From a bacterium (GTDB taxonomy: Bacteria > Patescibacteriota > Patescibacteriia > 2-12-FULL-60-25): 64,000 nucleotides of DNA. The stretch is taken from positions 438,625-502,624 of the forward strand of contig JAJYXM010000016.1 of assembly GCA_021796435.1 (NCBI GenBank). Reading direction: 5' to 3'. The position numbers and the translations under genes were made by a program. Of this stretch, positions 2,484 through 63,734 are shown one piece after another. The notes beneath the pieces were generated by a model that was not told where the DNA came from, did no database searches, and saw nothing but the letters and a program-made list of their open reading frames with translations. The stretch's first letter is position 1; each line of letters opens with the position of its first letter.

Positions 2484-2516
2484 ATGATCCCGTCGATGAC
2501 GGGGAAAGGATTTCCG

Positions 2517-6866: not shown

Positions 6867-6885
6867 CCTCCTTCCTCTGACGCTT

Positions 6886-6915
6886 GGGCGAGGCATGCCT
6901 CGCCCCTACACTTTT
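6886..6915 (+). terminator. Rho-independent terminator candidate (perfect palindrome gggcgaggcatgcctcgccc followed by ctacacTTTTgag)
   Basis: A 20-nt perfect GC-rich palindrome lies at 6886-6905 with a T-run at 6911-6914, 20 nt after the stop of the 812-aa ORF. A second hairpin is at 6916-6950 (gagaccgc...gcggtctc). Confidence 0.5.
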
Positions 6916-14771: not shown

Positions 14772-14784
14772 CGAACGACATAAT

Positions 14785-33540: not shown

Positions 33541-33667
33541 ATGTCGGATAAAGGGTAGTATTTTTAGTGGTTTTGCGCAATGAAAGCGGTTGAATGACGA
33601 TTGACGCGGTGGGCGTCTTATGTTATCAAGCCTGCATCTGTCCTTTCGGCAATCGAGGTGATATCCG

Positions 33668-37301: not shown

Positions 37302-37311
37302 TTTTCCTGAT

Positions 37312-48977: not shown

Positions 48978-49750
48978 GTGAAAAATCAGCGACATACGAA
49001 AAAAAGACGGGCGCTTTATACGGTTCATTGTTTACGGCGTACGACGACAAGAAGTTCGAGGAATCGGTCGCATTGTTCGGGATGCGCCATAAGAAGTGGG
49101 GCATCGATACCGAATGGTTCCGCGGCAAGGAGTGTCTGGATGCGGGCTGTGGTGGGGGAAGATATCTGATCGCCCTTTCGCGTCTGGGCGCGAAACGCGT
49201 GGTAGGCATAGACATCAGCGCCGATGCCGTCGCGGCAGCTAACCAGCGCATACAGGATAAGGGATTCGGTGGAATCGCCGAGGCGAAGCAGGCTTCGGTC
49301 CTTGAGATACCTTTTCCGGACGCGTCTTTCGACTATGTCGTCTCATCCGGCGTGATCCATCACACACCTGATCCGAAAAAAGGTTTCGACGAATTAGTCC
49401 GTGTCTTGCGACCCGGCGGAAAACTGTTCTTGTCGGTTTATGGACGCGGCGGGTTGGTCTGGATGGTGAATGACATCGGACGATTGATTGCACGTGTAGT
49501 ACCTTTCAAGACGATGGAGGCGCTGTGGAAGGCGATCGGAATCCCGGCCAATAAACGCTACAACTATCTCGATAATATGTATGTGCCGTACTGCTACCGC
49601 TATACCGAAAAGGAGATACGGAAGTGGTTGGCTGACGCCGGGTTCGAGAATGTACAACGTCTGAAGTTCGAACGTTACGATTATTCCACCTTGTGGTCGC
49701 GTATCATGCACGGTGAAGGCTGGTTGCAGTTCTACGCGGATAAAAAATAG
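48974..49750 (+). CDS. Class I SAM-dependent methyltransferase (paralogue of 50460..51299)
   Basis: CLDAGCGGGRYLIALSRLGAKRVVGIDISADAV ... DNMYVPYCYRYTEKEIRKWLADAGFENVQRLKFERYDY. Confidence 0.75.
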   Translation: MSEKSATYEKKTGALYGSLFTAYDDKKFEESVALFGMRHKKWGIDTEWFRGKECLDAGCGGGRYLIALSRLGAKRVVGIDISADAVAAANQRIQDKGFGGIAEAKQASVLEIPFPDASFDYVVSSGVIHHTPDPKKGFDELVRVLRPGGKLFLSVYGRGGLVWMVNDIGRLIARVVPFKTMEALWKAIGIPANKRYNYLDNMYVPYCYRYTEKEIRKWLADAGFENVQRLKFERYDYSTLWSRIMHGEGWLQFYADKK

Positions 49751-49756
49751 GAATTT

Positions 49757-50449
49757 ATGGGTTTGGGCTTCTTTACGACCGATCAGATGCCCGATAGACA
49801 AGCTGAAGTCAGTGGAGAACTGAAGCGACAGCCGTCTTGGGTTTTACGAGATGGCTTGTTGCAGCGGGTCTTAGGTGGCTTGGATAAGACGGCGTCGATA
49901 GTGGATTTGGGTAGCGGCAGCGGAGAGACCGAGAGGCAGCTCTTACAATTAGGATTCACGAATATTACGACGGTCGATATCGGGGATTATCTGGATTTTC
50001 CGGGTAAAGACACAGCGGCAATCAAGCAAGTCAGGGCCGACCTCTCGAAAGACGTGTTGGATATCCCCGCTGAATCCGCTGACGTGGTCTTGGCGTTACA
50101 GATGCTGGAGCATCTGGAGAATCCGTGGCATTGTGCGCGGGAGATTTTGCGTATCGCAAAGCCTGGTGCGATCATTTTCGTCTCGATCCCTGATGCGACG
50201 AGTTTCATTAACCGGATGATCTATCTTTTCAGGGCTGACGTACCCACGTATGCAGTGAAGAACAACCATATCTCGTTATTCACCAAGGCGCTGTTCAGTA
50301 AGCTTTGGGGTGGAAAGGTAGAGTTCAAAACGACGTTCCATTCCGAGGCGTATTTCAAGCTCTTCAACCGGAAGCTGAGGTTCAACGGTAATTCGTGGTT
50401 CGGCAGGCTGTTCGCCCGAAAAGTGGCGTATTGCTTAATGCGGCGATAA
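49757..50449 (+). CDS. Class I SAM-dependent methyltransferase
   Basis: IVDLGSGSGETERQLLQLGFTNITTVDIGD ... VVLALQMLEHLENPWHCAREILRIAKPGAIIFVSIPD. Confidence 0.65.
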   Translation: MGLGFFTTDQMPDRQAEVSGELKRQPSWVLRDGLLQRVLGGLDKTASIVDLGSGSGETERQLLQLGFTNITTVDIGDYLDFPGKDTAAIKQVRADLSKDVLDIPAESADVVLALQMLEHLENPWHCAREILRIAKPGAIIFVSIPDATSFINRMIYLFRADVPTYAVKNNHISLFTKALFSKLWGGKVEFKTTFHSEAYFKLFNRKLRFNGNSWFGRLFARKVAYCLMRR

Positions 50450-50459
50450 CCGTTAATAT

Positions 50460-51299
50460 ATGCCCGTTATGAATGAAACACCTATCCTCAAAATACCATT
50501 ACGACCTGACTGGAAGTTCGTCCCGACCAACATAGAAGATTCGACGGGCAAGATATATGACAATCTTTTTTCCGCTTACGACGAGAAGCGTTTTGAGGAG
50601 TCGGTGGAGCTGTTCCCGATGCGCCAGCAGAAGTGGGGCATATCGCTGGATTGGTTCAAGGATAAGGTGTGTTTGGATGTAGGCTGTGGCCAAGGCCGTT
50701 TCGTGACTGCGCTAGGTAGGCTGGGAGCCGCAAAAGCCATCGGCGTTGATATCAATGAGAAAGGTCTGGAGGCTGGCCGGAATCGCCGTTGGTTCAAGGA
50801 GTTGAATAACGTCGAGCTGATGAACTCTTCGGCCGGAGATCTGCCGTTCGTGGACAGCTATTTCGATTACGTCATCTGTTCTGGAGTGCTTTTGCTCATG
50901 CCCGAACCAAAGAAAGGTTTTGATGAGTTGGTGCGCGTGACCAAACCTGGAGGACGTATTTTCCTTTCGATGTACGGCAAAGGCGGACTCAAATGGGCGG
51001 TGAATGACTTCTTCCGCTTCTTCCTGATCCGTTGGGTGCCATTCGCGTTCACCGAGAAGGTTTTCAAGGCCGTAGGCGTGCCGCCGAATAAGCGCTACAA
51101 CATTTTGGATAACCTTTATACTCCATATACGCATCGCTACACCGAGAAAGAGATCCGCAAATGGTTCGAGGATGCTGGTTTCGAGAATATCCGCCGCGTG
51201 AAGTTCGAGCGTTATGATTACGAGACTTGGCAGAGCAGGTTGATTCATGGGGAGGCGTGGATACAGATAATCGCCGATAAGAAACCGGCAAACACTTAA
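50460..51299 (+). CDS. Class I SAM-dependent methyltransferase (paralogue of 48974..49750)
   Basis: CLDVGCGQGRFVTALGRLGAAKAIGVDINEKGL ... DNLYTPYTHRYTEKEIRKWFEDAGFENIRRVKFERYDY. Confidence 0.75.
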   Translation: MPVMNETPILKIPLRPDWKFVPTNIEDSTGKIYDNLFSAYDEKRFEESVELFPMRQQKWGISLDWFKDKVCLDVGCGQGRFVTALGRLGAAKAIGVDINEKGLEAGRNRRWFKELNNVELMNSSAGDLPFVDSYFDYVICSGVLLLMPEPKKGFDELVRVTKPGGRIFLSMYGKGGLKWAVNDFFRFFLIRWVPFAFTEKVFKAVGVPPNKRYNILDNLYTPYTHRYTEKEIRKWFEDAGFENIRRVKFERYDYETWQSRLIHGEAWIQIIADKKPANT

Positions 51300-51460: not shown

Positions 51461-52594
51461 ATGTCGATATTTTTCGATTCTCCGCAAGGAAAACGCGGGT
51501 TGGGCGAAGGCCATCCGGTTTTTGTCATTGCCGAGATCGGCAAGAATTTCATCCAGACGGAAGAGCCTAAGACGACCGAGGAATATCTCGAGAACGCGAT
51601 AGCTCTGGTGAAAGCGGCGAAGGATGCGGGGGCTGATGCGGTGAAATTCCAGACGCATAACTTCGTGGATGAGCAGGCGGATATCGATGTGGTCTCTCCG
51701 CATTTCCGTGGGTCGGACAGGTACAACTGGGTCAAGCGTAATGACCTTTCGACTCCGGTCGAGACTTTCTGGAGGCCTTTGAAACAAGCTTGCGACGAAA
51801 TCGGCATAACTTTCTTTTCGACTCCCATGAGCCGTGGTGCGGCGCATAAGCTGGATCAGATAGAGCCGGTATTATGGAAAGTCGGTTCGGGAGACGTCTT
51901 GGATTTCGTCATGCTTGATCATCTGCGTACGAGCGGGAAACCCATCATCATCAGCTCCGGCATGAGTACGCTGGAAGAGGTCGATAAGTCGATCGCTTTC
52001 TTAAAGGAAAAGACGGATCAGGTCGTGCTGCTGCATTGTGTTTCGCGCTATCCTTGTCCACCGGAAGACCTGCATCTAAAGACGATCGAATTCTTCAAGG
52101 AGCGCTATGGCATCCCTGTCGGATTTTCCGATCATTCGACCACTATCCATTCGTCCATGGCGGCAGTAGCTCTTGGCGCGTCGGTGATCGAGAAGCATTT
52201 TTCTTTCGGTAGGGAACTTTGGGGCTCTGATCATAAGGTGTCATTGACCCCGCAAGAGATGGCGGAGCTTGTGAGCGGCATACGCCGGATGGCTGAGGAT
52301 CGAGTCTATAGGGATGAGATCTTGCGTCATGAGTTGGTTCAGAAGGGGATGGGTGAGAAAGAGAAGGTGATGGACGAAGGTGAAGCCGTATTCCGTCCGT
52401 TATTCCGTAAGACGCTCGTCGCGGCGCATGACTTGCTGGCCGGGACTGTTATCGAAGAATACCATCTGCACGCCAAACGTCCGCAAGCACATCTGTTCGG
52501 TCTAGCGTCAGAGGAATACGGGAGGATATTGGGAAGAAAACTGAAGCACGATCACAAGGGCGGGGAGCCTTTTGCGGAAAACGATTTTGAATAA
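51461..52594 (+). CDS. neuB: N-acylneuraminate-9-phosphate / N-acetylneuraminate synthase family (NeuB/PseI/LegI-type nonulosonic acid synthase)
   Basis: NeuB motif VIAEIGKNF ... GADAVKFQTHNF. C-terminal SAF domain TLVAAHDLLAGTVIEEYHLHAKRP. Confidence 0.8.
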   Translation: MSIFFDSPQGKRGLGEGHPVFVIAEIGKNFIQTEEPKTTEEYLENAIALVKAAKDAGADAVKFQTHNFVDEQADIDVVSPHFRGSDRYNWVKRNDLSTPVETFWRPLKQACDEIGITFFSTPMSRGAAHKLDQIEPVLWKVGSGDVLDFVMLDHLRTSGKPIIISSGMSTLEEVDKSIAFLKEKTDQVVLLHCVSRYPCPPEDLHLKTIEFFKERYGIPVGFSDHSTTIHSSMAAVALGASVIEKHFSFGRELWGSDHKVSLTPQEMAELVSGIRRMAEDRVYRDEILRHELVQKGMGEKEKVMDEGEAVFRPLFRKTLVAAHDLLAGTVIEEYHLHAKRPQAHLFGLASEEYGRILGRKLKHDHKGGEPFAENDFE

Positions 52595-52676
52595 TTATTT
52601 TTCGAGCTTTAGGGCCTAGTAGGCTTGACAAAAACGCCAAAAAAGAGTAAGACGCTTTGAACAAGGGGAGGGTCGA

Positions 52677-53618
52677 ATGAATCTCTTTGGCGTACTTTTG
52701 ACATTATTCGGGGCTTTGATGGTGGCGATATACGCCATCGCGCTTCGCGCCATGCTGCATCGAGGCAAAAGCGCAGAAGAAAGGCCGGAAGAGAGTGTGC
52801 TGAACGGCGGCGTCATGACAGTCGCAGCCGTCTCGCTCTTCATCTTGGTGTCCGTCACGCGGACTTCGATAGATCTTGCTCCTGGTTTCTGGAAGTATGT
52901 CGCAATCACCGGATTGCTGAACATACTGATCAGTTACTTGGGGTTCAAGGCGCTGCAGACCAAGGATGACGTATCGCTTGTCGTACCGATCAAGGACACG
53001 ACGCCGGCGGCGATCGTCCTGACCTCTTGGATCATCGTGGGGGAACGCCCATCGACGATGGGGTACGTCGGTATCCTGTTGCTCGTGGCCGGTACCTACA
53101 CCCTGAACATCCAAGGCCTGATCGATCAGTTGCACAGCGGACGCTGGACCTGGAAGGCGTTTTTGGAGCCTTGGTTGGCTCTAGGCAGGTCGCGTGGTGT
53201 GCGTTTGGCGTTCGCTGCTTCGGCAGTCGGTTGCCTAGCGATACCGTTCGATGGCCTCGCTTCGCGATCCGGCCCGCCGCTCTTCGCGCTTGCCTGCGTC
53301 ATCAGCTTCTCTGCAGTCGCGCACTCGATTCGGGCATTGGCCTCGGGTGCGGGAAGGCAATTCTTCGATCGACGGCGCGGCATGCCTTATGCGGCGTTGG
53401 TCGGAGGGGCATTGTTCGCGGCTGCCACCGGTCTCTTCTGGTGGTCGTTCCGGTTCTTGCTCGTCGCGTATCAGGCGACCGTCAAACGCTCGGAGACGTT
53501 CTTCGTGATCGTTCTCGCTTTCCTTATCCTTCGTGAGCGGAAATCTTTCCGGTCACGGATGGTGGCGGTCTTGCTTATGTGCATCGGTACCATCCTCATC
53601 GCAAGGTCACGTGGTTGA
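52677..53618 (+). CDS. EamA/DMT-superfamily-like 10-TM membrane transporter
   Basis: Two repeated 5-TM halves. No specific motif was recognised. Confidence 0.45.
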   Translation: MNLFGVLLTLFGALMVAIYAIALRAMLHRGKSAEERPEESVLNGGVMTVAAVSLFILVSVTRTSIDLAPGFWKYVAITGLLNILISYLGFKALQTKDDVSLVVPIKDTTPAAIVLTSWIIVGERPSTMGYVGILLLVAGTYTLNIQGLIDQLHSGRWTWKAFLEPWLALGRSRGVRLAFAASAVGCLAIPFDGLASRSGPPLFALACVISFSAVAHSIRALASGAGRQFFDRRRGMPYAALVGGALFAAATGLFWWSFRFLLVAYQATVKRSETFFVIVLAFLILRERKSFRSRMVAVLLMCIGTILIARSRG

Positions 53619-53630
53619 AAGGGAATCGTC

Positions 53631-54734
53631 ATGCAGACACAGACAACACAGGGTCAGGATCCGAGGAATTCAGTGTTTCAGGGCTTGTCGGGAATCCTCT
53701 ACGCGGCGTGCGAGCCCATCGCGCCTTCATACCGCATGCAGTCGCAGACGGCGGCAGCATGCGCCGACGCAGTCTGTCCTGGTGGTCTCGCGGGCAAGCG
53801 GGTGCTCGACATCGGCTGCGGATTCGGCACAACGGCGCTCGCCATCGCGGCGCATGCGCCAGCCGAGATCGTCTGCGTCGACACCTCGCAGGTGCATCTG
53901 AACCTGCTCGAGCACACCTTCTTCGGGGATACGAGCGCCGAATCCTTCCTGCGCAGCGTGCAGGCGGAGGAGGTACTCGGGAAGTACTTCGAGCCGACGG
54001 TCGAACTCCTCAGCTCCATGCGGCGCGAGTTCCGAGCGAGCCGCTTCGTCCGGCGGGGTGGGAAGCTCTATACGTTTCTCGCTTCTTCGCTGGATCTCAC
54101 GCCCGAGATGATCGGGGGCGAGGTCGACGCGATCGTGGGGAACAACTTCCTGCACTGGCCATGCAACCAGCGTCGCGCGCAGTACGTCAAGGACGGCGAC
54201 GCGGAGAATGCGCTTGAGCGTGCCAAGGACGATGCGCTCAAGGCTTTGGCTGCACTGAAGAAGCCGGACGGCGTCATGGCTCTGCTCGAACCGATCGACT
54301 TCGTCCGTACCGATGACACCGCGGCGTACCAGGATATGGTGGCGCACGCCTTGGCCAACCATCCGGCGTTCGTGGCCCTGCATTCCGGGATCAACGATCG
54401 CTTGAGGGTGCGCTACGGCATGGACCGCAGGATGCCGTCTCTCTCGCCGATCTTCGAGCTCGAAGCGATGCCAGCGCTTTTCCGGCGAAACGGCCTCGAG
54501 CTCATGAATGTGGCCCAGTTCGAGCGCGTCATGCCCGTAACGTATGGTGACGCCTTGGACTTCATGTTCGTGCGCCTTCCCATGGTGCTGGGCGGCCTCG
54601 ACATCCCGTTCGACGCCAAGCTCGCCCTGGCCAAGGAGATCGAGATCAGGCTGCGCTACGAGGCGACCGAGATGAAGCCCGAGATCCTCAGCACTCCGCT
54701 CCACGGCCAGTACTTCGTCTTCCTGGCCAAGTAG
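53631..54734 (+). CDS. Putative class I SAM-dependent methyltransferase with a long C-terminal extension
   Basis: Motif I VLDIGCGFGTTALAIAAHAPAEIVCVDTS. This gene has markedly higher GC than the island average. Confidence 0.5.
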   Translation: MQTQTTQGQDPRNSVFQGLSGILYAACEPIAPSYRMQSQTAAACADAVCPGGLAGKRVLDIGCGFGTTALAIAAHAPAEIVCVDTSQVHLNLLEHTFFGDTSAESFLRSVQAEEVLGKYFEPTVELLSSMRREFRASRFVRRGGKLYTFLASSLDLTPEMIGGEVDAIVGNNFLHWPCNQRRAQYVKDGDAENALERAKDDALKALAALKKPDGVMALLEPIDFVRTDDTAAYQDMVAHALANHPAFVALHSGINDRLRVRYGMDRRMPSLSPIFELEAMPALFRRNGLELMNVAQFERVMPVTYGDALDFMFVRLPMVLGGLDIPFDAKLALAKEIEIRLRYEATEMKPEILSTPLHGQYFVFLAK

Positions 54735-54855
54735 TCCTTCCTCAATAATCGCCTGTCGGTGCTCACCGGCAGGCGATTTCCATTTTCATACCTTGGCTTG
54801 ACCAGAATCCAATTTTGGACTAAGGTCTGACATCCCTTTCACAAGGAGTAGTGGA

Positions 54856-55920
54856 ATGTCGGAGAATCAGGTTTCTGTTGTTTTCGTCACCAAAGACAAG
54901 GGCGGATTCGAGGCCAGCTACCCGCTGGCTCAAGAGCTGAAGCGTAGGGGCCACCAGGTCAAGGTCTTCGCTGAAGGCGTCTCCCTCGAACTCTGGAGAG
55001 CGTCCGGTCTCGAGCCGACCTTCGCTGGTTCCCTCGACTTCAGGCGTGAGCCGAACGAGGTGGATGCCAAGGTGCTGCTTTCCGTGGTCAATCCAGACAT
55101 AGTCGTCGCCACGATGGGTTCGCCCATCAACCTCGAACTCGAGTGCGGGAAGGCGGCCAACGATCTCGGCATCCCTTTGGCCATCATCGAGGATGTGTGG
55201 GGGACGTCGGGACGCATGACCTGCCCGGCCCAACTGGCCTTCACAGTCGACGACTTCGGTGTGCGACTCATGCGTGCACTTCCTCAATTCGCCGCAGCCA
55301 AGATCATCGTCGCCGGTAATCCTGGCGTAAGCGCGTTCGAGGTTCCGTCGGGAATCGAGGAGCGGGTAGAGCGGCTGCGTGAAGAGAAGGGGACGGTCGT
55401 CATGTTCGCCGGCGAAGGACCGGGTACCTCTGAGCTCCTGGTCATGACGTTCCTTTCGCTACGCAAGTCGAAAGAGCGTTGCGTCGTCGTGCCGCGCTTC
55501 CACCCCAAGTACCTCAACGTCCCTGAGAACAGGGTACTCTGGGAGGGGATCGTCGAGGCGATGGCGGGTGACAACGTCGCGGTCACCCGGGTCTTCGATG
55601 ACGTGTCGGATACGCGTGCCCTTGCGGCGCTATCTGACGTCACGATTTCCGGTTCGAGTACCGTCCTGCAATATGCGGCGAAGTTCGGCCGCATGTCGGT
55701 CAGCATCACGACGGAACTGACACGCAAGTTGCTCGGCGAGCAGGTGGCTTACAACGAGTACCCCGGCATCAAGCTCGGAATCGCCGTGCCTCTGCGTGAA
55801 CCCTGCGACATCATCTCTCTTGCGCGCGAAGCAGCTCCTGGAATGCGTGTGAATGCCAAGCACGTCTTCCGCGTGTTGCCGATCGAGGAGATCGCCGACG
55901 CCGTCCTTTCCCTGGCCTGA
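54856..55920 (+). CDS. Hypothetical protein, possibly GT-B-like
   Basis: VVFVTKDKGGFEASYPLAQELKRRGHQVKVFAEG resembles the N-terminus of Rossmann-like GT-B proteins. No diagnostic motif was found. Confidence 0.35.
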   Translation: MSENQVSVVFVTKDKGGFEASYPLAQELKRRGHQVKVFAEGVSLELWRASGLEPTFAGSLDFRREPNEVDAKVLLSVVNPDIVVATMGSPINLELECGKAANDLGIPLAIIEDVWGTSGRMTCPAQLAFTVDDFGVRLMRALPQFAAAKIIVAGNPGVSAFEVPSGIEERVERLREEKGTVVMFAGEGPGTSELLVMTFLSLRKSKERCVVVPRFHPKYLNVPENRVLWEGIVEAMAGDNVAVTRVFDDVSDTRALAALSDVTISGSSTVLQYAAKFGRMSVSITTELTRKLLGEQVAYNEYPGIKLGIAVPLREPCDIISLAREAAPGMRVNAKHVFRVLPIEEIADAVLSLA

Positions 55921-56018
55921 ATCTTCAGGCGTTCCTCTTCTTGCCTTAGCCCGCACTCTTGTCTTAGAGATTGCGGGCTTTCGTATTACCAAAATTTAGG
56001 CTATCGTGTCGATTGACT

Positions 56019-56447
56019 ATGACGAATAAATGCCTCTATATCCCAAAAGAACGAATCGATGAGACCCTGGCTCAAAGTCCACAAACGGGAAAAAGATTGC
56101 TTGAACCGCTTAAATCCTTTTCGGCCGAGCATGCTGCACCTTTTAATATCCTCGAGGATTGTCAGGTCTCGAACGACGCCGAAATCCATCAGCATGAGTC
56201 GGATCTTTGGTACTGCATCGAAGGCGAAGTGAGGTTCGTTTGCGGAGGGCAAATGGTCGACCCTTGGTTCAAGCAGTTGCCGGACGGTACAGAAGACAGG
56301 CGAGAGATCAAAGCCAAGACCATCGAGGGCGGTGAGGAAATCCTGTTGCATGCCGGCGATTGGCTTTGGATCCCCGCAGGTGAAGCGCACCAGCATTTTT
56401 GCGCAGATACGGCGCGTTTAGTGATAATCAAGATCCCGAAAGTTTGA
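56019..56447 (+). CDS. Cupin-domain protein
   Basis: Cupin motifs EIHQHESDLWYCIEGEV and LHAGDWLWIPAGEAHQH. The start was chosen at MTNKCLYIP (the ORF track's 55971 adds 16 aa). Confidence 0.55.
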   Translation: MTNKCLYIPKERIDETLAQSPQTGKRLLEPLKSFSAEHAAPFNILEDCQVSNDAEIHQHESDLWYCIEGEVRFVCGGQMVDPWFKQLPDGTEDRREIKAKTIEGGEEILLHAGDWLWIPAGEAHQHFCADTARLVIIKIPKV

Positions 56448-56529
56448 GGTTCGATTCTTGAGGTCGTTTTTCCTGTGCCGCCTGTTGACTTTTGGGCGGA
56501 AAAAAAGTAGTTTAGGGAGGCAAAATATC

Positions 56530-57723
56530 ATGTCTGACATCGAGAATATCGACTCCGAGATGAGGCGGAAACGTAAGATCTGCGTCGTCATCATCGGTCG
56601 GGCGAACTACGGACGCATCAAGACCGCCTTGGAAGCGATCCGTAAACACCCTGATCTGGAACTGCAGATAATCGGCGGTTCGTCTTTGTTATTGGAACGG
56701 CACGGCAAGGGAGTGGAAGTGATGCGAGCCGAGGGTTTTGAAGTCGATCATGAGGCTTATATGGCGGTGGAAGGAGAGACGCCTCTCACCATGGCTAAGT
56801 CGGTCGGTCTGGGCATCTTGGAGATCACTAATGCCTTGAACCGATTGAAGCCGGATGTCGTGCTTACGATCGCTGACCGTTTCGAGACCATCGCTACCGC
56901 TATCGCCGCGTCATACATGAACATCCCCGTCGCGCACACGCAGGGCGGTGAAGTCACAGGATCCATCGATGAACATGTACGCCACGCGGTCACCAAATTG
57001 GCGCATATCCATTTTCCGGCGACTCAGTTGAGCGGCGAGCGTCTGATCAAGATGGGGGAAGAGCCGGATACGGTTCATGTGACAGGTTGCCCGGCCATCG
57101 ACATCGTCGCGCAGATGGACAGGAATTTCACGCCGGAAGAGATCGAACAACTCGGTTATCAAGGCGTGGGTCCGAAAGTCGACGTGACCAAGCCATATGT
57201 CCTGATGATGCAGCATCCGGTGACGACCGAATATGGTTCGGGCCATGATCAGGTGATGGAGACCGTCGAAGCCATCAAGATGACCGGGATGCAGGCGATC
57301 GCCTTGTGGCCGAACATCGATGCCGGTTCGGACCAGATCTCGAAGGCGCTGCGTATCTTCCGTGAATTCAATCCTGAAGTGCCGGTACGTTTCTATAAGA
57401 ATTTCCCGCCAGAGACCTATGCGCGGGTCTTGGCGAATGCGGCTTGCGCCGTCGGTAACTCGTCCTCTTTCATCCGCGAAGGGAGTTATCTCGGTACCCC
57501 AGCCATAATCGTCGGCACGCGGCAACACAATCGTGAGCATGGGAGGAACGTGCTGATGGATGTCCCACACGATCGCCAAGCGATATTCGAGGCACTGCAG
57601 AGACAGCTGGCGAACGGACGTTACGAATCGGATCCAGTATTCGGCGATGGCAGGGCCGGTGAGAGGATAGCCGAGATACTGGCGCGCGCAGAATTCCGGG
57701 TCCAGAAGAGCATCACCTATTGA
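56530..57723 (+). CDS. neuC: UDP-N-acetylglucosamine 2-epimerase (hydrolysing), NeuC family
   Basis: NeuC signature GGEVTGSIDEHVRHAVTKLAHIHF. The start was chosen at MSDIENID, ATG 56530. Confidence 0.75.
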   Translation: MSDIENIDSEMRRKRKICVVIIGRANYGRIKTALEAIRKHPDLELQIIGGSSLLLERHGKGVEVMRAEGFEVDHEAYMAVEGETPLTMAKSVGLGILEITNALNRLKPDVVLTIADRFETIATAIAASYMNIPVAHTQGGEVTGSIDEHVRHAVTKLAHIHFPATQLSGERLIKMGEEPDTVHVTGCPAIDIVAQMDRNFTPEEIEQLGYQGVGPKVDVTKPYVLMMQHPVTTEYGSGHDQVMETVEAIKMTGMQAIALWPNIDAGSDQISKALRIFREFNPEVPVRFYKNFPPETYARVLANAACAVGNSSSFIREGSYLGTPAIIVGTRQHNREHGRNVLMDVPHDRQAIFEALQRQLANGRYESDPVFGDGRAGERIAEILARAEFRVQKSITY

Positions 57724-57728
57724 TATAT

Positions 57729-58679
57729 ATGTCTAAAACCGTCATCCTCGAACCGACTAATTACAGCCCCAAATCGATTGCGCTATATTCGCAACTGGGT
57801 AGTGTCAGTTCTGAAGCATTGGAGGGCGAGGCGCTGGATAGGGAATTGGCTGATGCGGAGGTTATTGTCCTCCGTTTGGCTTTTTATATCGACGCGGCGT
57901 TCATGGACAAAGCCCCTAAGCTCAAGATCCTGGCGACGCCTACGACCGGACTGAACCACATCGATGTCGTCGAAGCCGAAAAGCGCGGTATCAGGATAAT
58001 CAGCCTTAAAGGTTGGCGCGAAGTGACTGAAAAGATATATGCGACATCTGAACACACGATCGGGCTCATGTTGGCTTTGTTGCGGAAATTGCCGTTCGCC
58101 CATAACCACGTAGTGGCTGGAGGTTGGGACCGAAACCTTTTCGTCGGCCATGAGATCAGCGGCGCTACGATCGGTATGCTCGGTTGCGGCCGTCTGGGTT
58201 TTCGTGTGGCGGAGATACTCGACAAGATGGGCGCCAAGGTGATCGCTTACGATCCATACCAGAAGAATATCCCGACATGTGTGGAGATGGTCAGTGATCT
58301 TCAGGCCTTTTTGGGTCGTGCCGACATCGTTTCCGTACACGTATATCTTACGGATGAGACGACGCACATGTTGAGCAAACAGGAATTCGCTTGGATGAAA
58401 CCCGGGGTCAGGCTGGTCAACACGGCGCGTGGACAGATCATCGACGAAGTCGCGTTGCTTGAGGCTCTGGAGTCGGGGCATCTAGCCGGAGCGGCGTTGG
58501 ATGTGTTGGAGAACGAGGCGGCGGACGGGAAATTCCTGGAACATAACGCTTTGCGTGGATTCGCGGCCACGCATGACAATCTGATCCTGACGCCGCATAT
58601 AGGCGGCGCGACGCGTGAGTCGATGGCGATGACGGAAGACGCGATCGCCGGAGCCGTGGTCGAAGCCATGAATGAATAA
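57729..58679 (+). CDS. D-isomer-specific 2-hydroxyacid dehydrogenase family (PGDH/GDH-like), NAD-binding
   Basis: GATIGMLGCGRLGFRVAEILDKMGAKVIAYD (GxGxxG), the catalytic region VNTARGQIIDEVALLEALESGHLAGAALDVLENE, and the terminal LTPHIGGAT. Confidence 0.7.
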   Translation: MSKTVILEPTNYSPKSIALYSQLGSVSSEALEGEALDRELADAEVIVLRLAFYIDAAFMDKAPKLKILATPTTGLNHIDVVEAEKRGIRIISLKGWREVTEKIYATSEHTIGLMLALLRKLPFAHNHVVAGGWDRNLFVGHEISGATIGMLGCGRLGFRVAEILDKMGAKVIAYDPYQKNIPTCVEMVSDLQAFLGRADIVSVHVYLTDETTHMLSKQEFAWMKPGVRLVNTARGQIIDEVALLEALESGHLAGAALDVLENEAADGKFLEHNALRGFAATHDNLILTPHIGGATRESMAMTEDAIAGAVVEAMNE

Positions 58680-58684
58680 ATATT

Positions 58685-59392
58685 ATGAACGATTTGAAGG
58701 TATTGGCCGTGATCACGGCGCGTGGAGGCTCAAAAGGAATACCACGCAAGAACATAAAGGATCTGGCGGGAAAACCGCTGATAGCCTGGACCATAGAGGC
58801 GGCGCAGGGGAGTAAACTCTTGACCGACTATCTTGTATCGACGGATGATCAGGAGATCGCGGACATCTCGCGGCAGTGCGGTGCACCTGTGCCGTTCATG
58901 CGTCCGGCTGAACTGGCGACAGATACGGCGACGAGTATGGGCGTGGTGCAGCATGCCTTGAAGTGGCAAGAGGAAAATGAGGGTAAGACATATGACGCAT
59001 TAATGATCCTGCAGCCGACGAGTCCGTTGCGTTCTTCGCAGGATATCGACGGTTGTATAGAGAAGATGGCTGAGACGGATTGTGATTCTGTCATGAGCAT
59101 GGTCAAACTGACCGACTTCGCGGCCAAGAAACTCAAGGTGCTGGATGGTGACAAGATAAGACCGTGGATGGAGGACGAGGGTAGAGAAAGCAGCTCGCGC
59201 CAGGCTTTGGGTGACGTGTACAAACGTAATTGCGCCGTATATCTGACTAAGACGGAAAGGATCATGGAAGGGGATCTGTTCGGTCATGATTCGAGGGCTT
59301 ATGTCATGCCTGAAGATGTCTCTACGGACATCAATACTCCTTTGGATTTTGAGTTACTGGATTTTTTGATGCGAAGAAAGTTGATGAAATAA
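58685..59392 (+). CDS. neuA: N-acylneuraminate cytidylyltransferase (CMP-nonulosonic acid synthetase)
   Basis: LAVITARGGSKGIPRKNIKDLAGKPLIAWTIEAA and ILQPTSPLR, the classic CMP-NeuAc synthetase motifs. Confidence 0.85.
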   Translation: MNDLKVLAVITARGGSKGIPRKNIKDLAGKPLIAWTIEAAQGSKLLTDYLVSTDDQEIADISRQCGAPVPFMRPAELATDTATSMGVVQHALKWQEENEGKTYDALMILQPTSPLRSSQDIDGCIEKMAETDCDSVMSMVKLTDFAAKKLKVLDGDKIRPWMEDEGRESSSRQALGDVYKRNCAVYLTKTERIMEGDLFGHDSRAYVMPEDVSTDINTPLDFELLDFLMRRKLMK

Positions 59393-59395
59393 ACT

Positions 59396-61237
59396 ATGTG
59401 CGGGATTGCCGGGTCATTCGGACGAGGTGCTGACTCGGCCGTTGTCAGACGCATGATAGATGCGTTGGCGCATCGCGGTCCTGACGGCGAGGGCTTGTTG
59501 GAACTGTCCAACGGTACGATGGCGCATCGTAGATTATCCATCATCGACCTGTCTGACGCAGGAAAACAACCGATGGTCTCGCATGACGGTCGTTTCGCCA
59601 TAACCTTCAACGGAGAGATCTATAACTACAAGGAATTGCGTGAAGAGCTGATCGGTTATCCTTTTTCTTCCCAGACGGATACGGAGGTGATCTTGGCCGC
59701 ATGGGAAAAATGGGGCGAGGCCTGTTTGGATCGGATGCTCGGTATGTTCGCCTTCGCGATCATCGATAAGACCACGGGCGAGGTGACTGTCGTACGCGAC
59801 CGATTGGGCATCAAGCCGCTTTTTTATGCTTTGCAGGACGGTAAACTGTTCTTCGCTTCAGAGATCAAAGCTTTGTTGGCGGCGGGTGTCAGGGTCGAAC
59901 CGAACGAAAAAATCATCTCGCACTATCTTCTGCGGGGATATTATGATCATTCAGAGGAGACGTTCTTCAAGAATATATTGATCTTGCGCGGTGGGCATCT
60001 GTTGAGGTTCTGCGAGGGCGAGCTAGAAACCAAACGCTGGTGGTATTTGCCCGAACGGGTGGAGGGTATCGCTTCCTTATCTGACGATGAGCTGGTGGAA
60101 AGTTTCCGCGCATTGCTAGACGATAGCCTGCGCCTGCATCTGCGCAGCGACGTCCCGGTCGGGGTGAATCTCTCGAGCGGAATCGATTCGTTGAGCCTGT
60201 TCTTCGAGCTTAACCGGATAATGGACCTCAAGTCCTTGAACATCTTCTCCATGGGTTTCGAGGAGAAGGCGTATGATGAGACGGAGGACATAATGCATCT
60301 GTCGCATGATTTCGGCGTACCTTTCCATCGGACAGCGATAGAACCAGGGGTATTCAACCGGACGATCGACCAGACGGTAGCCGCCCTCGACCAGCCATTC
60401 GGAGGAGTATCGACGATGGGTTATTACGATCTGATGTCGTCCCATCGCAAGAATGGCGTGATCGTCGTGCTGGAAGGTCAAGGCGTGGATGAGATCCTGG
60501 CAGGATATCGGTATTTCTACGGCCCTTATTATCGCGATCTCGTCAGACAGGGGCGTTTGGGTGAGATAGGGGCCGAGATAGGCCGCGCCGCCCAAGATAA
60601 CAATCCACTCCATCTCTTGCAGTCGGCACTGGCTTTCGGCAAGACCTGGCGCGACGCCGGAAAGTCGGCTTTCCAGGATGGGACTAAGTTTTTGCGTTTC
60701 GATTGCCTCAAGGAGTCATGGGTGGCAAAAGCCGGCAAGTATGCCGCGCCTGAATTCGAGCGGCCTTTCCCGGATCATCTGCGGAATGCGCTTTATAGGG
60801 ATACGATATATACCAAATTGCCTCGTGTCTTGCGCTTCAATGACCATATATCGATGGCGCATGGACTGGAGTTGCGCGTCCCATATCTGGATCATCGCAT
60901 AGTCGAGTTCGCATTCTGTCTTGAGGATCGGTGGAAGATACGCGGAGGAAAAAGCAAATTCATGTTACGTGAGGCCATGCGCGGTGTCGTGCCGGAAGAT
61001 CTGCGCACGCGGCAAAAGCGCCCGCAGTCTTCACCGCAGACGACGTGGTTCAAGACACGACTGAAGGATGATGTATTGCGTGAATTGTCCTCAAGAGCCT
61101 TGAAGGAATTGCCTATGGTAGATGCGGAAAAGGCTCAAGAGAGCTTCCGTCGTTTCGTCGGGAACGAGAAGGATAATAATTCGTTTTTCTACTGGCAGCT
61201 GATTAATCTTGCTAGATGGTATAAAATGTACTTCTGA
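59396..61237 (+). CDS. asnB: Asparagine synthase (glutamine-hydrolysing) family amidotransferase, paralogue 3, immediately downstream of neuA
   Basis: MCGIAGSF, GATase-2 domain, PP-loop LSSGIDSLSL. It lies 3 nt after the neuA stop. Confidence 0.85.
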   Translation: MCGIAGSFGRGADSAVVRRMIDALAHRGPDGEGLLELSNGTMAHRRLSIIDLSDAGKQPMVSHDGRFAITFNGEIYNYKELREELIGYPFSSQTDTEVILAAWEKWGEACLDRMLGMFAFAIIDKTTGEVTVVRDRLGIKPLFYALQDGKLFFASEIKALLAAGVRVEPNEKIISHYLLRGYYDHSEETFFKNILILRGGHLLRFCEGELETKRWWYLPERVEGIASLSDDELVESFRALLDDSLRLHLRSDVPVGVNLSSGIDSLSLFFELNRIMDLKSLNIFSMGFEEKAYDETEDIMHLSHDFGVPFHRTAIEPGVFNRTIDQTVAALDQPFGGVSTMGYYDLMSSHRKNGVIVVLEGQGVDEILAGYRYFYGPYYRDLVRQGRLGEIGAEIGRAAQDNNPLHLLQSALAFGKTWRDAGKSAFQDGTKFLRFDCLKESWVAKAGKYAAPEFERPFPDHLRNALYRDTIYTKLPRVLRFNDHISMAHGLELRVPYLDHRIVEFAFCLEDRWKIRGGKSKFMLREAMRGVVPEDLRTRQKRPQSSPQTTWFKTRLKDDVLRELSSRALKELPMVDAEKAQESFRRFVGNEKDNNSFFYWQLINLARWYKMYF

Positions 61238-61405
61238 GGAGACTTTTAATTCTGGCGCATGACTGCGTCAAAGCCTCCGCTGCTTGCTCTGCGTACGCTC
61301 CAGTACGCGCCGCGCCCGCCATGCAAGCCTTGCTTGCAAGGCGTTGCGGGCGGGTCGCTCCGCTGCTCGGCGTTTCCTTGTCCTGCATCCAGAATTAAAA
61401 GTCTC
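61238..61405. repeat. Hairpin-forming intergenic element, family 2 (copy F) with an extra internal GC hairpin
   Basis: Perfect 17-bp terminal inverted repeat gagacttttaattctgg / ccagaattaaaagtctc. It shares ctcgctctgcgtacgctccagtacgcgccgcg and cgctccgctgctcggcgtttcct with copy E. An inserted palindrome cgcccgccatgcaagccttgcttgcaaggcgttgcgggcg is unique to this copy. It starts at the asnB stop. Confidence 0.75.
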
Positions 61406-61432
61406 TTGTTTCGAAGGCTTGATACAACAGAG

Positions 61433-62320
61433 ATGAAAAAAATAAAATCATCAAAATCGTACCAATGTCCGGTCTGCGGCAGCGAGTCTTCTGAAACCCT
61501 AGACAGCCGACGCCTTAACGGTCACGAACATAAGAACCTGATCTGCGGATCCTGTGGCATGGTTTGGGTCTCGACAAGGCAGCCAGCAAAAACCTATGAC
61601 AAGTTTTATCGCAGCGGATATGCGGTCGGCGTTTATGGCTTGAAAGACGGGAAAGAGGGTCTGGATGAAGTATTGGAATGGCGCGTGCGACGGAGTAAGG
61701 AGAAACTGGCAAATTTCGGTTCCGCTTGGGCACGCGGGTCGAGGGTCCTGGAGATCGGCAGCGGTATTGGAGCATTGTTGAAGTATCTCAAAGATGAGTA
61801 TCGTTGTAAGGTTTGGGGCATCGAGCCGGAACCTGCTTTTGCCGAACTAAGCCAGAAAGAATTGGGGCTAGATGTTTTTGCCGGCACGTTCGAACAATGG
61901 ACGAAAAATCATCCTAAAGGTTTTCCTCTTAAGTACGACCGGATAGTGCTGGATCAGGTCTTGGAACATATCCTGGAGCCCGTGGATTTTTTACGACGAG
62001 TCGCGGAAAGGCTTGAGTCTGACGGGAAGATATTCATCAGCGTACCTAACGTAACGGCGCCGAAGGACAGGCAAAAGGATTTTTTCATCTTCGAACACGT
62101 GTCATCCTTCTCGCCCTTCGCCCTTTGGCTGCTTTTGGCGCGATGCGGATTTAAGATCGTGAGGATGCATGCCGAAAAGCCAGGATCGCTTCAAGTCATG
62201 GCGATGAAGTTCGGTTCACCCGAAAAAATGATCGATGCCGATGAGGTAGGAAAGCCGCAAGACAAATCCATGATCCTCAGACGCTTTAAAGCATTGGAGA
62301 AACATGGGCGGAATAAATAG
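61433..62320 (+). CDS. Class I SAM-dependent methyltransferase with an N-terminal Cys4 zinc-ribbon
   Basis: The start was chosen at MKKIKSSKSYQCPVCGSE...CGSCG (the ORF track's 61259 start lies inside the repeat element). MT motif I is RVLEIGSGIGALLKYLKDEYRCKVWGIEPEP. Confidence 0.65.
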   Translation: MKKIKSSKSYQCPVCGSESSETLDSRRLNGHEHKNLICGSCGMVWVSTRQPAKTYDKFYRSGYAVGVYGLKDGKEGLDEVLEWRVRRSKEKLANFGSAWARGSRVLEIGSGIGALLKYLKDEYRCKVWGIEPEPAFAELSQKELGLDVFAGTFEQWTKNHPKGFPLKYDRIVLDQVLEHILEPVDFLRRVAERLESDGKIFISVPNVTAPKDRQKDFFIFEHVSSFSPFALWLLLARCGFKIVRMHAEKPGSLQVMAMKFGSPEKMIDADEVGKPQDKSMILRRFKALEKHGRNK

Positions 62321-63734
62321 GGCGATCCAGGCATGGCGAACTGCATCGAAGGATCGTAAGTTTTGGGTCGCTCTGTCTTTGATCGCCGTTTTCGGTTTCG
62401 TGTGGGGTCGTCAAAATCTGCTGGATAGTCCGCGTCCATGGTTCGATGAGGGAATATATCTTCAGGTCGCCAAGAACGTCGCGCAGGAAGGGCTTTGGGC
62501 CTTGCGGGTTTCGCCGCATCAGACGGTGGGTTTGGAGTACATCACGGTCGGATTTCCGGTCATATTGCCGGTAGCATTCTCGATCAGGATATTCGGAGCG
62601 TCGCTTTTGGCGGCACGGAGCGTGATGTTGGCATGGATCGTTTTGGGTATATTGCTTGCTGGTTATTTGGGTTATCGCATGTACGGCAGGAAGGCAGGTT
62701 TGGCCAGTGCATCATTCCTGGCAAGTTTCGGACCATGGTATGCGAACGGGAAGAACGTGATGGGTGAGGTGCCCGGTCTGGTGTTGATGATGGCATCTCT
62801 GATTTTTTTGACGAGGATCGAGAAAGGAGAAAGGCATTGGTGGGATTTTTTTTGGCTCACGACTTTCGCCTGTCTGGCTGCCGTCAGCAAACCATCATTC
62901 CTGGTCTTGGGTCCGGCGATGGTCTTGGCGATAGCGGTTCTGCTATGGCGCGGCTTCAGGCCTACTTGGTCGATCGCGGCGGCTATAATCGTACCGATAG
63001 TTTCGGTGTTCGCCGTCTGGATGTGGACCCAGTTCGGAGGGTTCCCGGGGAGCGAGGTCTTGCATCACTACCTGAATCCTTATGGATTGGATGAGGTGGG
63101 CGCAGTCATGCGCGATAATTTTTTCGGCATGCTGAGCCATGTGACGCCATTGCATCTTTTGTTGATGCTGGGTTTGATAGTTTGTGCGATTTACATACGT
63201 GGTCGGAAAAGGATCAAAGCGATCGAATATGTTTTGATGACGGTGATCCTGATGACCTTGCTCAGCTATCTGCGTACAGCGGGTTGGTATAGGTATTTTT
63301 TCGTGGCGCAGATCTCGTGTTTCTTGCTTCTGCCGTTGGTCCCTATGGTATTTTCCGGAAAACTCCATCATGCGAAGCAAGCATGGCTCATGCCTGTCTT
63401 CGTCATTTTCTTCATCGCGATGAACCTGGTCGCTCTGATCCGTGATCCGGCACCGATGTATGGGCAGGGTTGGCGGAAAATAGAGGATTGGCTCAAGTCG
63501 GATAAAGCTTCAGGCAGCATCATGTTCGTGAACGTACCGGAAGCCGTATATTTTTTCAGAGGGAAAGAATACAGCCAGTTTTTGAGGATCACAGACAAGT
63601 TGAGTTTAGGCGATCTGCGTGGCGGAACTGATATGATAGTGGCGCCGAATCCGCTTCCGGATAAGCTGATCCTGCCTTACGATTACCATCAATCCGAACA
63701 GCTAGGTAGCTACGCTATTTGGCGGAAGGACTAA
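62304..63734 (+). CDS. GT-C-fold glycosyltransferase of the PMT / ArnT (GT39/GT83-like) family
   Basis: About 11 TM helices. A first-loop acidic motif WFDEGIYLQVAKNV (a DE-like catalytic loop) and the overall topology are typical of the dolichyl/undecaprenyl-phosphate-sugar:protein or lipid glycosyltransferases. Confidence 0.55.
   Translation: MGGINRAIQAWRTASKDRKFWVALSLIAVFGFVWGRQNLLDSPRPWFDEGIYLQVAKNVAQEGLWALRVSPHQTVGLEYITVGFPVILPVAFSIRIFGASLLAARSVMLAWIVLGILLAGYLGYRMYGRKAGLASASFLASFGPWYANGKNVMGEVPGLVLMMASLIFLTRIEKGERHWWDFFWLTTFACLAAVSKPSFLVLGPAMVLAIAVLLWRGFRPTWSIAAAIIVPIVSVFAVWMWTQFGGFPGSEVLHHYLNPYGLDEVGAVMRDNFFGMLSHVTPLHLLLMLGLIVCAIYIRGRKRIKAIEYVLMTVILMTLLSYLRTAGWYRYFFVAQISCFLLLPLVPMVFSGKLHHAKQAWLMPVFVIFFIAMNLVALIRDPAPMYGQGWRKIEDWLKSDKASGSIMFVNVPEAVYFFRGKEYSQFLRITDKLSLGDLRGGTDMIVAPNPLPDKLILPYDYHQSEQLGSYAIWRKD

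Follow-up and report, generated by a model that had tools for sequence, protein, structure and literature searches.

What does a gene of the asparagine synthetase B (AsnB) family do directly behind neuA, in a locus for sialic acid-like sugars of a Patescibacteria bacterium? The question is raised by a 64 kb stretch of contig JAJYXM010000016.1 (hereafter the window), in which positions 51461 to 61237 carry neuB, neuC, neuA and an AsnB-family gene that we term AsnB3. This interval is the core of a CMP-nonulosonic acid (CMP-NulO) module within a large surface-glycan island of the Wzx/Wzy type. A NeuC/NeuB/NeuA module in a surface-glycan island is the known part of the arrangement. What appears to be new is, first, that a clade of AsnB-like proteins around AsnB3, with Gln in place of Glu348, and an orthologous D-2-hydroxyacid dehydrogenase (HADH) are conserved NulO accessory genes in bacteria and archaea and, second, that gene fusions support the role of the dehydrogenase. 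The original prediction, made from the sequence, was a module for an amidated or acetamidino sialic-like sugar. Its link between AsnB and the NulO genes is upheld below, whereas its view of PseA as AsnB-like, its use of a NeuB tree to identify the sugar and its view that the pathway is notable in this lineage are not.

The core enzymes, NeuC, NeuB and a NeuA-like cytidylyltransferase, are all present and intact, on the + strand like every gene of the unbroken series that spans 46.2-63.7 kb of the window. The NeuB-family NulO synthase (51461..52594; Patescibacteria clade) has the domain architecture of its family (PF03102, 233 bits, cut-off 22; PF08666 SAF, 35 bits). It scored merely 21 bits with models of DAHP/KDO8P-type synthases and is thus a genuine NeuB-family enzyme, as had been predicted. 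The UDP-sugar 2-epimerase of the NeuC/LegG family (56458 or 56530..57723) is of the hydrolysing type, with 354.7 bits for TIGR03568 (cut-off 235.9) and 73 bits for the wecB model. The CMP-nonulosonate synthetase-like cytidylyltransferase of the NeuA/PseF family (58685..59392) matched PF02348 (CTP_transf_3) with 84.5 bits, TIGR03584 (PseF) with 164.5 bits (cut-off 205.7) and KdsB models with at most 56 bits. AsnB3 (59396..61237; Asn_synthase 222 bits, GATase_7 156 bits) starts 3 nt past the neuA stop. Between neuB and neuA lie an EamA/DMT-family membrane transporter (52677..53618; PF00892, 67 bits; weak TPT match), a small metal-binding cupin (Cupin_2, 55971-56447, likely start 56019; PF07883, 38 bits) and HADH (57720 or 57729..58679). 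The predicted gene list therefore stands for all of these, each with a strong family match, as do the 3-nt gap, two further AsnB paralogues and WecB (37231-38388; TIGR00236 290 bits, cut-off 210). It had overlooked a methyltransferase (53631-54734) and an open reading frame (ORF) of 354 aa (54856-55920). The label 'UXS-like' for a short-chain dehydrogenase/reductase (32671-33837, - strand) had to be dropped, as the best NCBIfam matches of this protein (at most 77 bits) are far under every cut-off and leave it untypable.

AsnB3 has the architecture of the AsnB superfamily, a class II Ntn glutaminase followed by a PP-loop synthetase. The paralogues AsnB1 (27175..29064, +; TIGR01536 475 bits) and AsnB2 (39413..41272, +; TIGR01536 448 bits) lie in the upstream part of the island. 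In an alignment of E. coli AsnB with five AsnB-like proteins, three from the window and two from the related locus L002, AsnB1-3 kept the Met-Cys N-terminus, Arg49, Asn74, Glu76, Asp98, the PP-loop, Lys449 and Asp351/Glu352, the PP-loop of AsnB3 reading SSGIDS instead of SGGxDS; from the N-terminus to Lys449 these residues are likewise invariant in the two L002 proteins. The E. coli motif LSGEGSDE is changed to LNGDGGDE in AsnB1, LGGDGGDE in AsnB2 (both GDGGDE type) and LEGQGVDE in AsnB3, so that the position of Glu348 is taken by Asp in AsnB1 and AsnB2 and by Gln in AsnB3. None of the three retains the segment YDVTTIRAST (Thr322/Thr323/Arg325; TT.R). Human ASNS cannot do without Glu364, the counterpart of Glu348, and its E364Q variant is inactive (PMC6748925). 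All three proteins exceeded the broad model TIGR01536 (427-475 bits, cut-off 267) and carry the NCBI name asparagine synthase, but with 246-325 bits (AsnB3: 246) they stayed under the cut-off of 499 for NF006949 (asparagine synthetase B). For TIGR03108 (XrtA/PEP-CTERM amidotransferase, cut-off 817) the scores were 371 bits for AsnB3, 536 for AsnB1 and 436 for AsnB2. TIGR03573 (PseA/PtmG/WbuX) was absent from the nine NCBIfam families that matched AsnB3 at E≤0.001; to call PseA AsnB-like is thus false at the family level and holds solely at that of the PP-loop superfamily. Judged by these residues and scores, AsnB3 is not a housekeeping asparagine synthetase, and the suspicion that the paralogues differ from true asparagine synthetase B was confirmed for all three, at Glu348 and at the TT.R segment. 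For AsnB-like proteins in which Glu348 is replaced by Gln, as here, 'asparagine synthase (glutamine-hydrolyzing)' is probably a misannotation. The motif LEGQGVDE occurs in 97 of the 120 best matches of AsnB3, and MDQ7815029.1 ('Patescibacteria group bacterium') falls into the same 90%-identity cluster as AsnB3.

An origin of the three AsnB genes by recent duplication was considered and rejected, as their mutual identity is 31-33% (AsnB3 to AsnB1 33%, to AsnB2 31%). Because this identity is so low, we class them by sequence as old paralogues of two types, AsnB1 and AsnB2 being of another type than AsnB3. The original idea that three AsnB genes mean several amidated sugars is a conjecture; the window encodes no uronic-acid dehydrogenase. 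Each copy is flanked by glycosyltransferases; for AsnB2 the neighbours are a GT4 glycosyltransferase and WecB on one side and a NUDIX gene on the other.

The tie between AsnB3 and the NulO genes was evaluated by comparing gene neighbourhoods. Scanning one genome per GTDB species for relatives of the window NeuB yielded 147 stretches, mostly of Patescibacteria; the best 80 of these 147 (51-81% identity) are nearly all from Patescibacteria, with few from Woesearchaeota and some with doubtful-looking assembly labels. A NulO pathway is therefore ordinary in this lineage rather than notable, as it had first been thought; our literature search found no paper pairing Patescibacteria with nonulosonic acids. 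AsnB3 orthologues (at least 49% identity) share contigs with the closest NeuB relatives. Five loci (L002-L004, L006 and L018) preserve the order NeuB-NeuC-HADH-NeuA-AsnB-methyltransferase-PMT_2, with identities of 57-67%. The AsnB orthologue stands directly after neuA in the closest Patescibacteria relatives, and L002 and L003 share a conserved succession in which AsnB is followed by methyltransferase, PMT_2 and EamA.

A blind sample extended this observation beyond the closest relatives. Ten members of the AsnB3 clade with 42-45% identity were picked from the 120 best matches without knowledge of their context. NulO genes were found at most 9 kb away in all ten, NeuB in eight and HADH in six. 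The order NeuB-HADH-NeuC-(x)-NeuA-AsnB was present in four picks (L089, L090, L092 and L097), which originate from Gemmatimonadota (L092, Longimicrobiales) and from unclassified metagenome contigs, while in L087 (Alphaproteobacteria) and L088 (Woesearchaeota) the cassette genes are present in another arrangement. The gap from NeuA to AsnB measures 0-7 nt in five lineages. AsnB3, HADH and a methyltransferase of the UbiE type are thus a recurrent accessory set with NulO genes in distant bacteria and archaea. The shared LEGQGVDE motif, the adjacency to neuA and the ten out of ten blind picks together support the predicted functional tie between the AsnB paralogue and the NulO module, as far as sequence and gene order can indicate function.

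The dependence appears to be one-sided. Among the 80 Patescibacteria NulO loci, AsnB was found within the flanks of only 5, as against 38 for HADH (22 of the 34 loci of at least 18 kb). This asymmetry implies that AsnB depends on the NulO context and not the reverse, as is expected of an optional tailoring step. The window NeuC shares 52-54% identity with NeuCs of AsnB cassettes outside the Patescibacteria, as compared to 38% with an ordinary Patescibacteria NeuC. The NeuC-HADH-NeuA-AsnB block of the window's sub-clade is nearer to cassettes from outside the Patescibacteria than to ordinary NulO genes of this group, and because of this closer relationship it appears, on sequence grounds, to travel and to be exchanged as a unit.

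Some loci with an AsnB of the LEGQGVDE type, namely L086 (2829-6814) and L099 (955-2598), carry another NulO gene set, composed of a short NeuB, a HAD phosphatase, GFO_IDH_MocA and a short-chain dehydrogenase/reductase. L086 also encodes an AMP-binding ligase, a carrier protein and a polysaccharide deacetylase, and L099 a B12-binding radical SAM enzyme; these gene sets hint at further N-acyl or C-methyl NulO variants. A tblastn search of PLSDB, as a source of cultured carriers, with an alphaproteobacterial LEGQGVDE AsnB gave no match over 38% identity. At 4.9 Mb, the PLSDB record L093 (NZ_CP141089.1, 'E. coli strain KE47 plasmid unnamed1') is a chromosome filed as a plasmid, and its weak NeuB-like match is a 514-aa ORF that is not NeuB.

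The second accessory enzyme, HADH, matched PF02826 (182 bits) and PF00389 (50 bits) and resembles phosphoglycerate dehydrogenase (1wwk, 160 bits), but reached no equivalog cut-off (PGDH model: 228 bits, cut-off 454). Its motifs GMLGCGRLG (GxGxxG), NTARG, DVLENE and TPHIGG are in place and the catalytic Arg/Glu/His are intact; the HADHs of the cassettes are 40-57% identical to each other. An exhaustive HMMER search, of which the closest 150 representatives were inspected for fusions, revealed an HADH-CTP_transf_3 protein (P0266), three proteins with the reverse order CTP_transf_3-HADH (P0275, P0360 and P0366), a fusion of HADH with a UbiE-type methyltransferase (P0258) and one of a UDP-sugar dehydrogenase with HADH (P0390). 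Because CTP_transf_3 is a NeuA-like domain, these natural fusions make HADH a partner of the CMP-NulO synthetase, and we infer that it belongs to the NulO pathway and acts with this synthetase on the same sugar. We know of no NulO pathway that employs a 2-hydroxyacid dehydrogenase, and our literature search found no paper linking the two. NulOs are 2-keto-3-deoxy acids, and 2-keto acids are the product class of the 2-hydroxyacid dehydrogenase family; since reduction of a NulO at C2 would block CMP activation, this correspondence does not explain the HADH reaction.

Which backbone the module builds is hinted at by NeuC rather than by NeuB. The window NeuB is under both equivalog cut-offs (TIGR03569: 258 bits against 399.65; TIGR03586, PseI: 208 bits against 340.25) and is nearly equally close to the solved structures of PseI (137 bits), N. 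meningitidis NeuB (133 bits) and B. subtilis SpsE (128 bits). In a neighbour-joining tree with 300 bootstraps, for which the annotated neuB, neuC and neuA of UTI89 served as E. coli K1 reference, the Patescibacteria clade and the clade of cassettes from outside the Patescibacteria were each recovered with 100% bootstrap support and their union with just 44%, and neither could be attached to E. coli K1 NeuB, PseI or the Leg-like synthase. Naming the sugar from NeuB phylogeny was therefore given up: the tree that the original prediction had put forward as a test assigns no product, at 29% identity to E. coli K1 NeuB, 31% to Priestia PseI (pseC/G/H context) and 37% to an Azospirillum NeuB-family protein. 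The ORFs of at least 150 aa in the 64 kb window include neither a DegT aminotransferase nor a PglF/LegB-type dehydratase nor a hexapeptide acetyltransferase, and hence no precursor set of the legionaminic/pseudaminic acid (Leg/Pse) type (4,6-dehydratase, aminotransferase and N-acetyltransferase). Because a NeuC-type epimerase is present and diamino-sugar genes are absent from the window, the simplest reading of the gene content is a backbone of the N-acetylneuraminic acid (Neu5Ac) type.

Taken together, we regard it as probable, with appreciable room for doubt, that the locus is a NulO module whose AsnB3 acts as a NulO-tailoring amidotransferase. The N-terminal Cys-glutaminase domain would free ammonia from glutamine, the PP-loop domain would adenylate a carbonyl oxygen of the NulO or CMP-NulO, and the ammonia would then displace AMP. 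The step would most likely follow CMP activation, given the coupling of the AsnB3 gene with neuA and the timing in Campylobacter, which introduces the acetamidino group once the sugar is CMP-linked (cited in PMC5378307). As its target we tentatively put forward the 5-N-acetyl group, which would be converted at the CMP-sugar stage into the acetimidoyl group of a 5-acetimidoyl (acetamidino) NulO and might afterwards be N- or O-methylated by the neighbouring methyltransferases. This possibility is favoured because loss of the carboxylate-activating Glu separates the clade from paralogues that presumably amidate carboxylates, and because T. forsythia makes an acetamidino NulO without PseA or PtmG but with AsnB in the cluster. 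Acetamidino NulOs are common. Amidation of the C1 carboxylate to a charge-neutral carboxamide seems unlikely, though carboxylate amidation is the canonical chemistry of the AsnB family and in L086 and L099 the clade goes with a second NulO type, marked by a short NeuB and a HAD phosphatase, suggesting a target common to all NulOs. For any other position of the NulO the chance is slight.

A wider reading, which falls somewhat short of probable, is that the LEGQGVDE AsnB-like proteins form a dedicated, formerly unrecognised family of NulO amidotransferases that, with HADH and the UbiE-type methyltransferase, yield an undescribed Neu5Ac-type derivative and have spread laterally. The products might be 5-acetimidoyl or N-methyl-acetimidoyl neuraminic acid or a charge-neutral C1-carboxamide; the latter might escape NulO surveys based on 1,2-diamino-4,5-methylenedioxybenzene (DMB), which require a free alpha-keto acid. 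The lateral spread would include Patescibacteria, DPANN archaea, Gemmatimonadota and Proteobacteria.

Several points weigh against a NulO-tailoring role of AsnB3. The LEGQGVDE clade is known from sequence alone, and as the blind sample came from the best 120 matches, the association holds for the AsnB3 clade (at least 40% identity) and not for all LEGQGVDE proteins. One blind pick, L091, has a cytidylyltransferase alone, 8 kb off and behind an insertion sequence element. The backbone is not fixed by the NeuB clade, which is equidistant from NeuB, PseI and SpsE, and the absence of precursor genes refers to the 64 kb window, a part of a genome of 1.5 Mb. We know of no precedent for an AsnB-family enzyme that turns an amide into an amidine, nor of a natural C1-amide of a NulO, and the known acetamidino enzymes PseA, PtmG and WbuX are of another PP-loop family. 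In our literature search, the T. forsythia paper alone linked acetamidino groups to an asparagine synthetase. T. forsythia also has ManNAcCONH2, so its AsnB may make a uronamide (PMC6120980).

This last point leads to the alternative that survives best, although we consider it unlikely: AsnB3 could amidate the carboxyl group of another sugar of the same glycan, as WbpS-type enzymes would for a uronamide such as ManNAcAN or GalNAcAN, and stand beside neuA merely because both belong to one island. Conversion of a carboxylate to a carboxamide would be canonical for the AsnB family, the window encodes WecB, the maker of UDP-ManNAc, and islands bearing several AsnB genes are common. Moreover, ManNAcCONH2 is a constituent of the T. 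forsythia glycan, whose cluster includes asnB, wecB and wecC (PMC6120980), and a UDP-sugar 6-dehydrogenase fused to HADH exists elsewhere (P0390). Yet no UDP-sugar 6-dehydrogenase (UDPG_MGDP_dh) was found in the 64 kb window or in the compact cassettes L089, L092 and L097, AsnB stands directly behind NeuA in five lineages whichever glycosyltransferases surround it, and the clade occurred with NulO genes in every blind pick.

A further alternative, more doubtful still, concerns the backbone: the module could make a 5,7-diamino NulO of the Leg/Pse type from precursor genes elsewhere in the genome, with NeuC acting as a LegG-type hydrolysing epimerase. TIGR03568 takes in NeuC and LegG alike, PseF is the best cytidylyltransferase model (164 bits), NeuB is matched best, among solved structures, by a pseudaminic acid synthase (137 bits), and many related loci hold a second NulO gene set. 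Against this, the PseI model scored lower than the NeuB model (208 and 258 bits), PseG, the hydrolase of the Pse pathway, is of another family than NeuC, and aminotransferase, 4,6-dehydratase and N-acetyltransferase are missing not only from the window but also from the compact cassettes L089, L092 and L097 and from the Patescibacteria locus L020. That AsnB3 and its paralogues are housekeeping asparagine synthetases, or peptidoglycan amidotransferases acting on meso-diaminopimelate (mDAP) like LtsA/AsnB1, which lie in the island by chance, is very improbable: their TIGR01536 scores, NCBI name and intact glutaminase and PP-loop residues would fit, and long AsnB-like proteins of Gram-positive bacteria do amidate peptidoglycan, but the exchange of Glu348 for Gln (AsnB3) or Asp (AsnB1 and AsnB2), the loss of the TT.R segment in all three, NF006949 scores of 246-325 bits against a cut-off of 499, the mutual identity of 31-33% with glycosyltransferases around each copy, and the NulO synteny kept across phyla speak against it.

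Returning to the module with AsnB3 as putative tailoring enzyme, methyltransferases dependent on S-adenosylmethionine (SAM) are prominent among its further partners. Upstream of NeuB lie a UbiE-type methyltransferase of the cassette type (48974..49750; PF08241, 100 bits), a second SAM methyltransferase (49757..50449; PF13489, 60 bits) and a UbiE-type paralogue of the first (50460..51299; 56% identity to it). The methyltransferases situated just 5' of AsnB in L086, L087 and L090 are orthologous to the two paralogues just 5' of the window NeuB: the 48974-49750 protein is 37-44% identical to them, and the 50460-51299 protein 35-37% identical to cassette methyltransferases. MT_b (61259..62320, start uncertain, the gene caller giving 61559; PF13489, 68 bits), with a possible N-terminal zinc ribbon, follows AsnB3 in the Patescibacteria sub-clade, its L002 orthologue being 49% identical, and precedes a PMT_2/ArnT-like membrane glycosyltransferase of the GT-C type (62304..63734; PF13231, 31 bits). 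MT_a (53631..54734), with an insertion in its domain and weak methyltransferase matches, is shared solely with L005 and L006. At least 10 SAM-dependent methyltransferase genes fall within 20 kb of the glycan island (41930-62320), and a 983-aa protein encoded upstream at 8550-11501 joins a methyltransferase to two GT4 modules; this abundance suggests that the glycan of the island is heavily methylated. In L020, an ordinary Patescibacteria NulO locus, a TylC3-like sugar C-methyltransferase (1686-2999; Methyltransf_14, 150 bits) was observed beside neuC, along with two EamA genes and a GFO_IDH_MocA oxidoreductase.

The 354-aa ORF (54856..55920) that follows MT_a had no match in Pfam, NCBIfam or PDB sequences. 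Its AlphaFold2 model (pLDDT 56) has a beta-alpha pattern of two Rossmann domains, and Foldseek matched it to UDP-GlcNAc 2-epimerases and GT-B glycosyltransferases (E about 3e-8, TM 0.3-0.4). It is probably a protein of GT-B fold, with no finer assignment to be drawn from a model of such low confidence. A word search gave three homologues, and homologues stand beside NeuC in L005, L011, L015 and L017. The GC content over MT_a and this ORF (53631-55920) is approximately 0.60, compared to 0.52 in the surroundings; this deviation, together with the restriction of both genes to the closest relatives (L005 and, for MT_a, L006 as well), suggests that they were inserted recently between neuB and neuC.

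For the transfer of the NulO, a likely candidate by sequence resemblance, which we treat as a lead, is the TagF/BFO_1060-like GT-B protein (47586..48977; PF04464, 41 bits; TIGR04396, 41 bits, under cut-off). Its match to NF046086, the BFO_1060 family, amounts to 67.7 bits over residues 137-256 alone and is under the cut-off of 200, a partial resemblance to a family of which Tanf_01245 and TFUB4_00887 are required for the transfer of Pse/Leg derivatives in T. forsythia (PMC5420450). The gene is preceded by one for a Wzx-type flippase (Polysacc_synt, 46195..47589; PF01943, 59 bits), and the same pair lies upstream of NeuB in L005, L006 and L018. TagF-like genes occur in 31 of the 80 Patescibacteria NulO loci, the copy of L020 also matching polysialyltransferase. 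EamA genes are likewise recurrent in these loci, and the cupin was found in 14 of the 80 at 45-65% identity; it bears the metal-binding motifs HxH...E and ...H (His/His/Glu/His) and gave no informative match among solved structures.

The upstream part of the island holds, in addition to AsnB1, AsnB2 and WecB, approximately 12 glycosyltransferases and two Wzy_C/O-antigen-ligase-like membrane proteins (7041-8471 and 23460-25850), the latter of which is fused to tetratricopeptide repeats. An 812-aa ORF (4428-6866, +) abounds in Asp-rich, calcium-binding thrombospondin type-3 repeats (PF02412, 198 bits) and is opposed by an antisense ORF of identical length (4458-6896, -), in a region with a GC content of 0.62 as compared to approximately 0.52 elsewhere. 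Regulators are encoded inside the island, namely a TrmB-type protein (634-1401) and an extracytoplasmic function (ECF) sigma factor with a DUF5667 partner (17086-18769). Four large ORFs have no Pfam family: 19053-22955 (1300 aa), 14737-16452 (571 aa), 2484-4064 (526 aa) and 30130-31269 (379 aa).

NulOs shape cell-surface recognition, phage attachment and host interaction, and the enzymes known to modify them are very few; for T. forsythia, neither the acetamidino nor the glyceroyl group has yet been traced to its origin. The conserved gene combination described here points, at the level of sequence, to an undescribed NulO modification. A compact set consisting of neuB, HADH, neuC, neuA and the LEGQGVDE asnB, with or without the methyltransferase and the TagF-like transferase, would offer a route to a new NulO derivative, and two of the enzyme activities in this set have no characterised representative. 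Patescibacteria and DPANN archaea live attached to other cells, for which such surface sugars are plausible attachment determinants.

Compared with known systems, the module shares its three core enzyme families, encoded in one operon, with the Neu5Ac pathway NeuC-NeuB-NeuA of E. coli K1 (kps region 2) and N. meningitidis (SiaA/SiaC/SiaB), and like this pathway it has no diamino-sugar precursor genes in the window. The E. coli K1 counterparts are only distantly similar (NeuB 29% identity, NeuC 27%, NeuA 32%), NeuB and NeuA of the window are under the equivalog cut-offs, and the conserved partners HADH, the AsnB-like protein, methyltransferases, cupin and EamA are not part of the K1 cluster.

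The closest described arrangement is the O-glycosylation cluster of T. forsythia (pseBCFHGI, asnB Tanf_01265, wecB/wecC, mtfJOY and gtfS/BFO_1060 family). NulO genes, an AsnB homologue, WecB, several SAM methyltransferases, a Wzx flippase and a TagB/BFO_1060-like NulO transferase are common to this cluster and the window. T. forsythia makes Pse5Am7Gra, carries asnB in its Pse glycan cluster and, according to published reports, lacks homologues of pseA and ptmG (PMC5378307, PMC6120980); its AsnB was proposed by the authors as the maker of the acetamidino group (PMC6120980, PMC5420450). The cluster differs from the window by a full Pse pathway and WecC, and the uronamide of its glycan could equally explain AsnB. 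A 2-hydroxyacid dehydrogenase does not appear in the published description of the cluster, where the gene behind the glyceroyl group is termed elusive.

With PseA, PtmG (LegA), WbuX and WbpG (TIGR03573), AsnB3 would share the proposed outcome, an acetamido group turned into acetamidino on a CMP-NulO, as well as the chemistry of a PP-loop ATP pyrophosphatase. These enzymes are of another family, to whose model AsnB3 has no match, and lack a fused Ntn-glutaminase domain; HisH/HisF-like partners supply the ammonia to PseA-type amidotransferases. In C. coli, the neighbouring methyltransferase PtmH N-methylates the amidine, a parallel to the adjacency of AsnB and methyltransferase. The two-domain architecture of AsnB3 is that of asparagine synthetase B (E. 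coli AsnB, human ASNS), WbpS, LtsA/AsnB1 and the TIGR03108 enzymes, and AsnB3 shares with the asparagine synthetase B group Cys1, the glutamine-binding residues, a PP-loop of the SGGxDS type, Lys449 and Asp351/Glu352. It is set apart from this group by Gln in place of Glu348, by the absence of Thr322/Thr323/Arg325, and by a genomic context of NulO genes instead of genes for amino acids or peptidoglycan.

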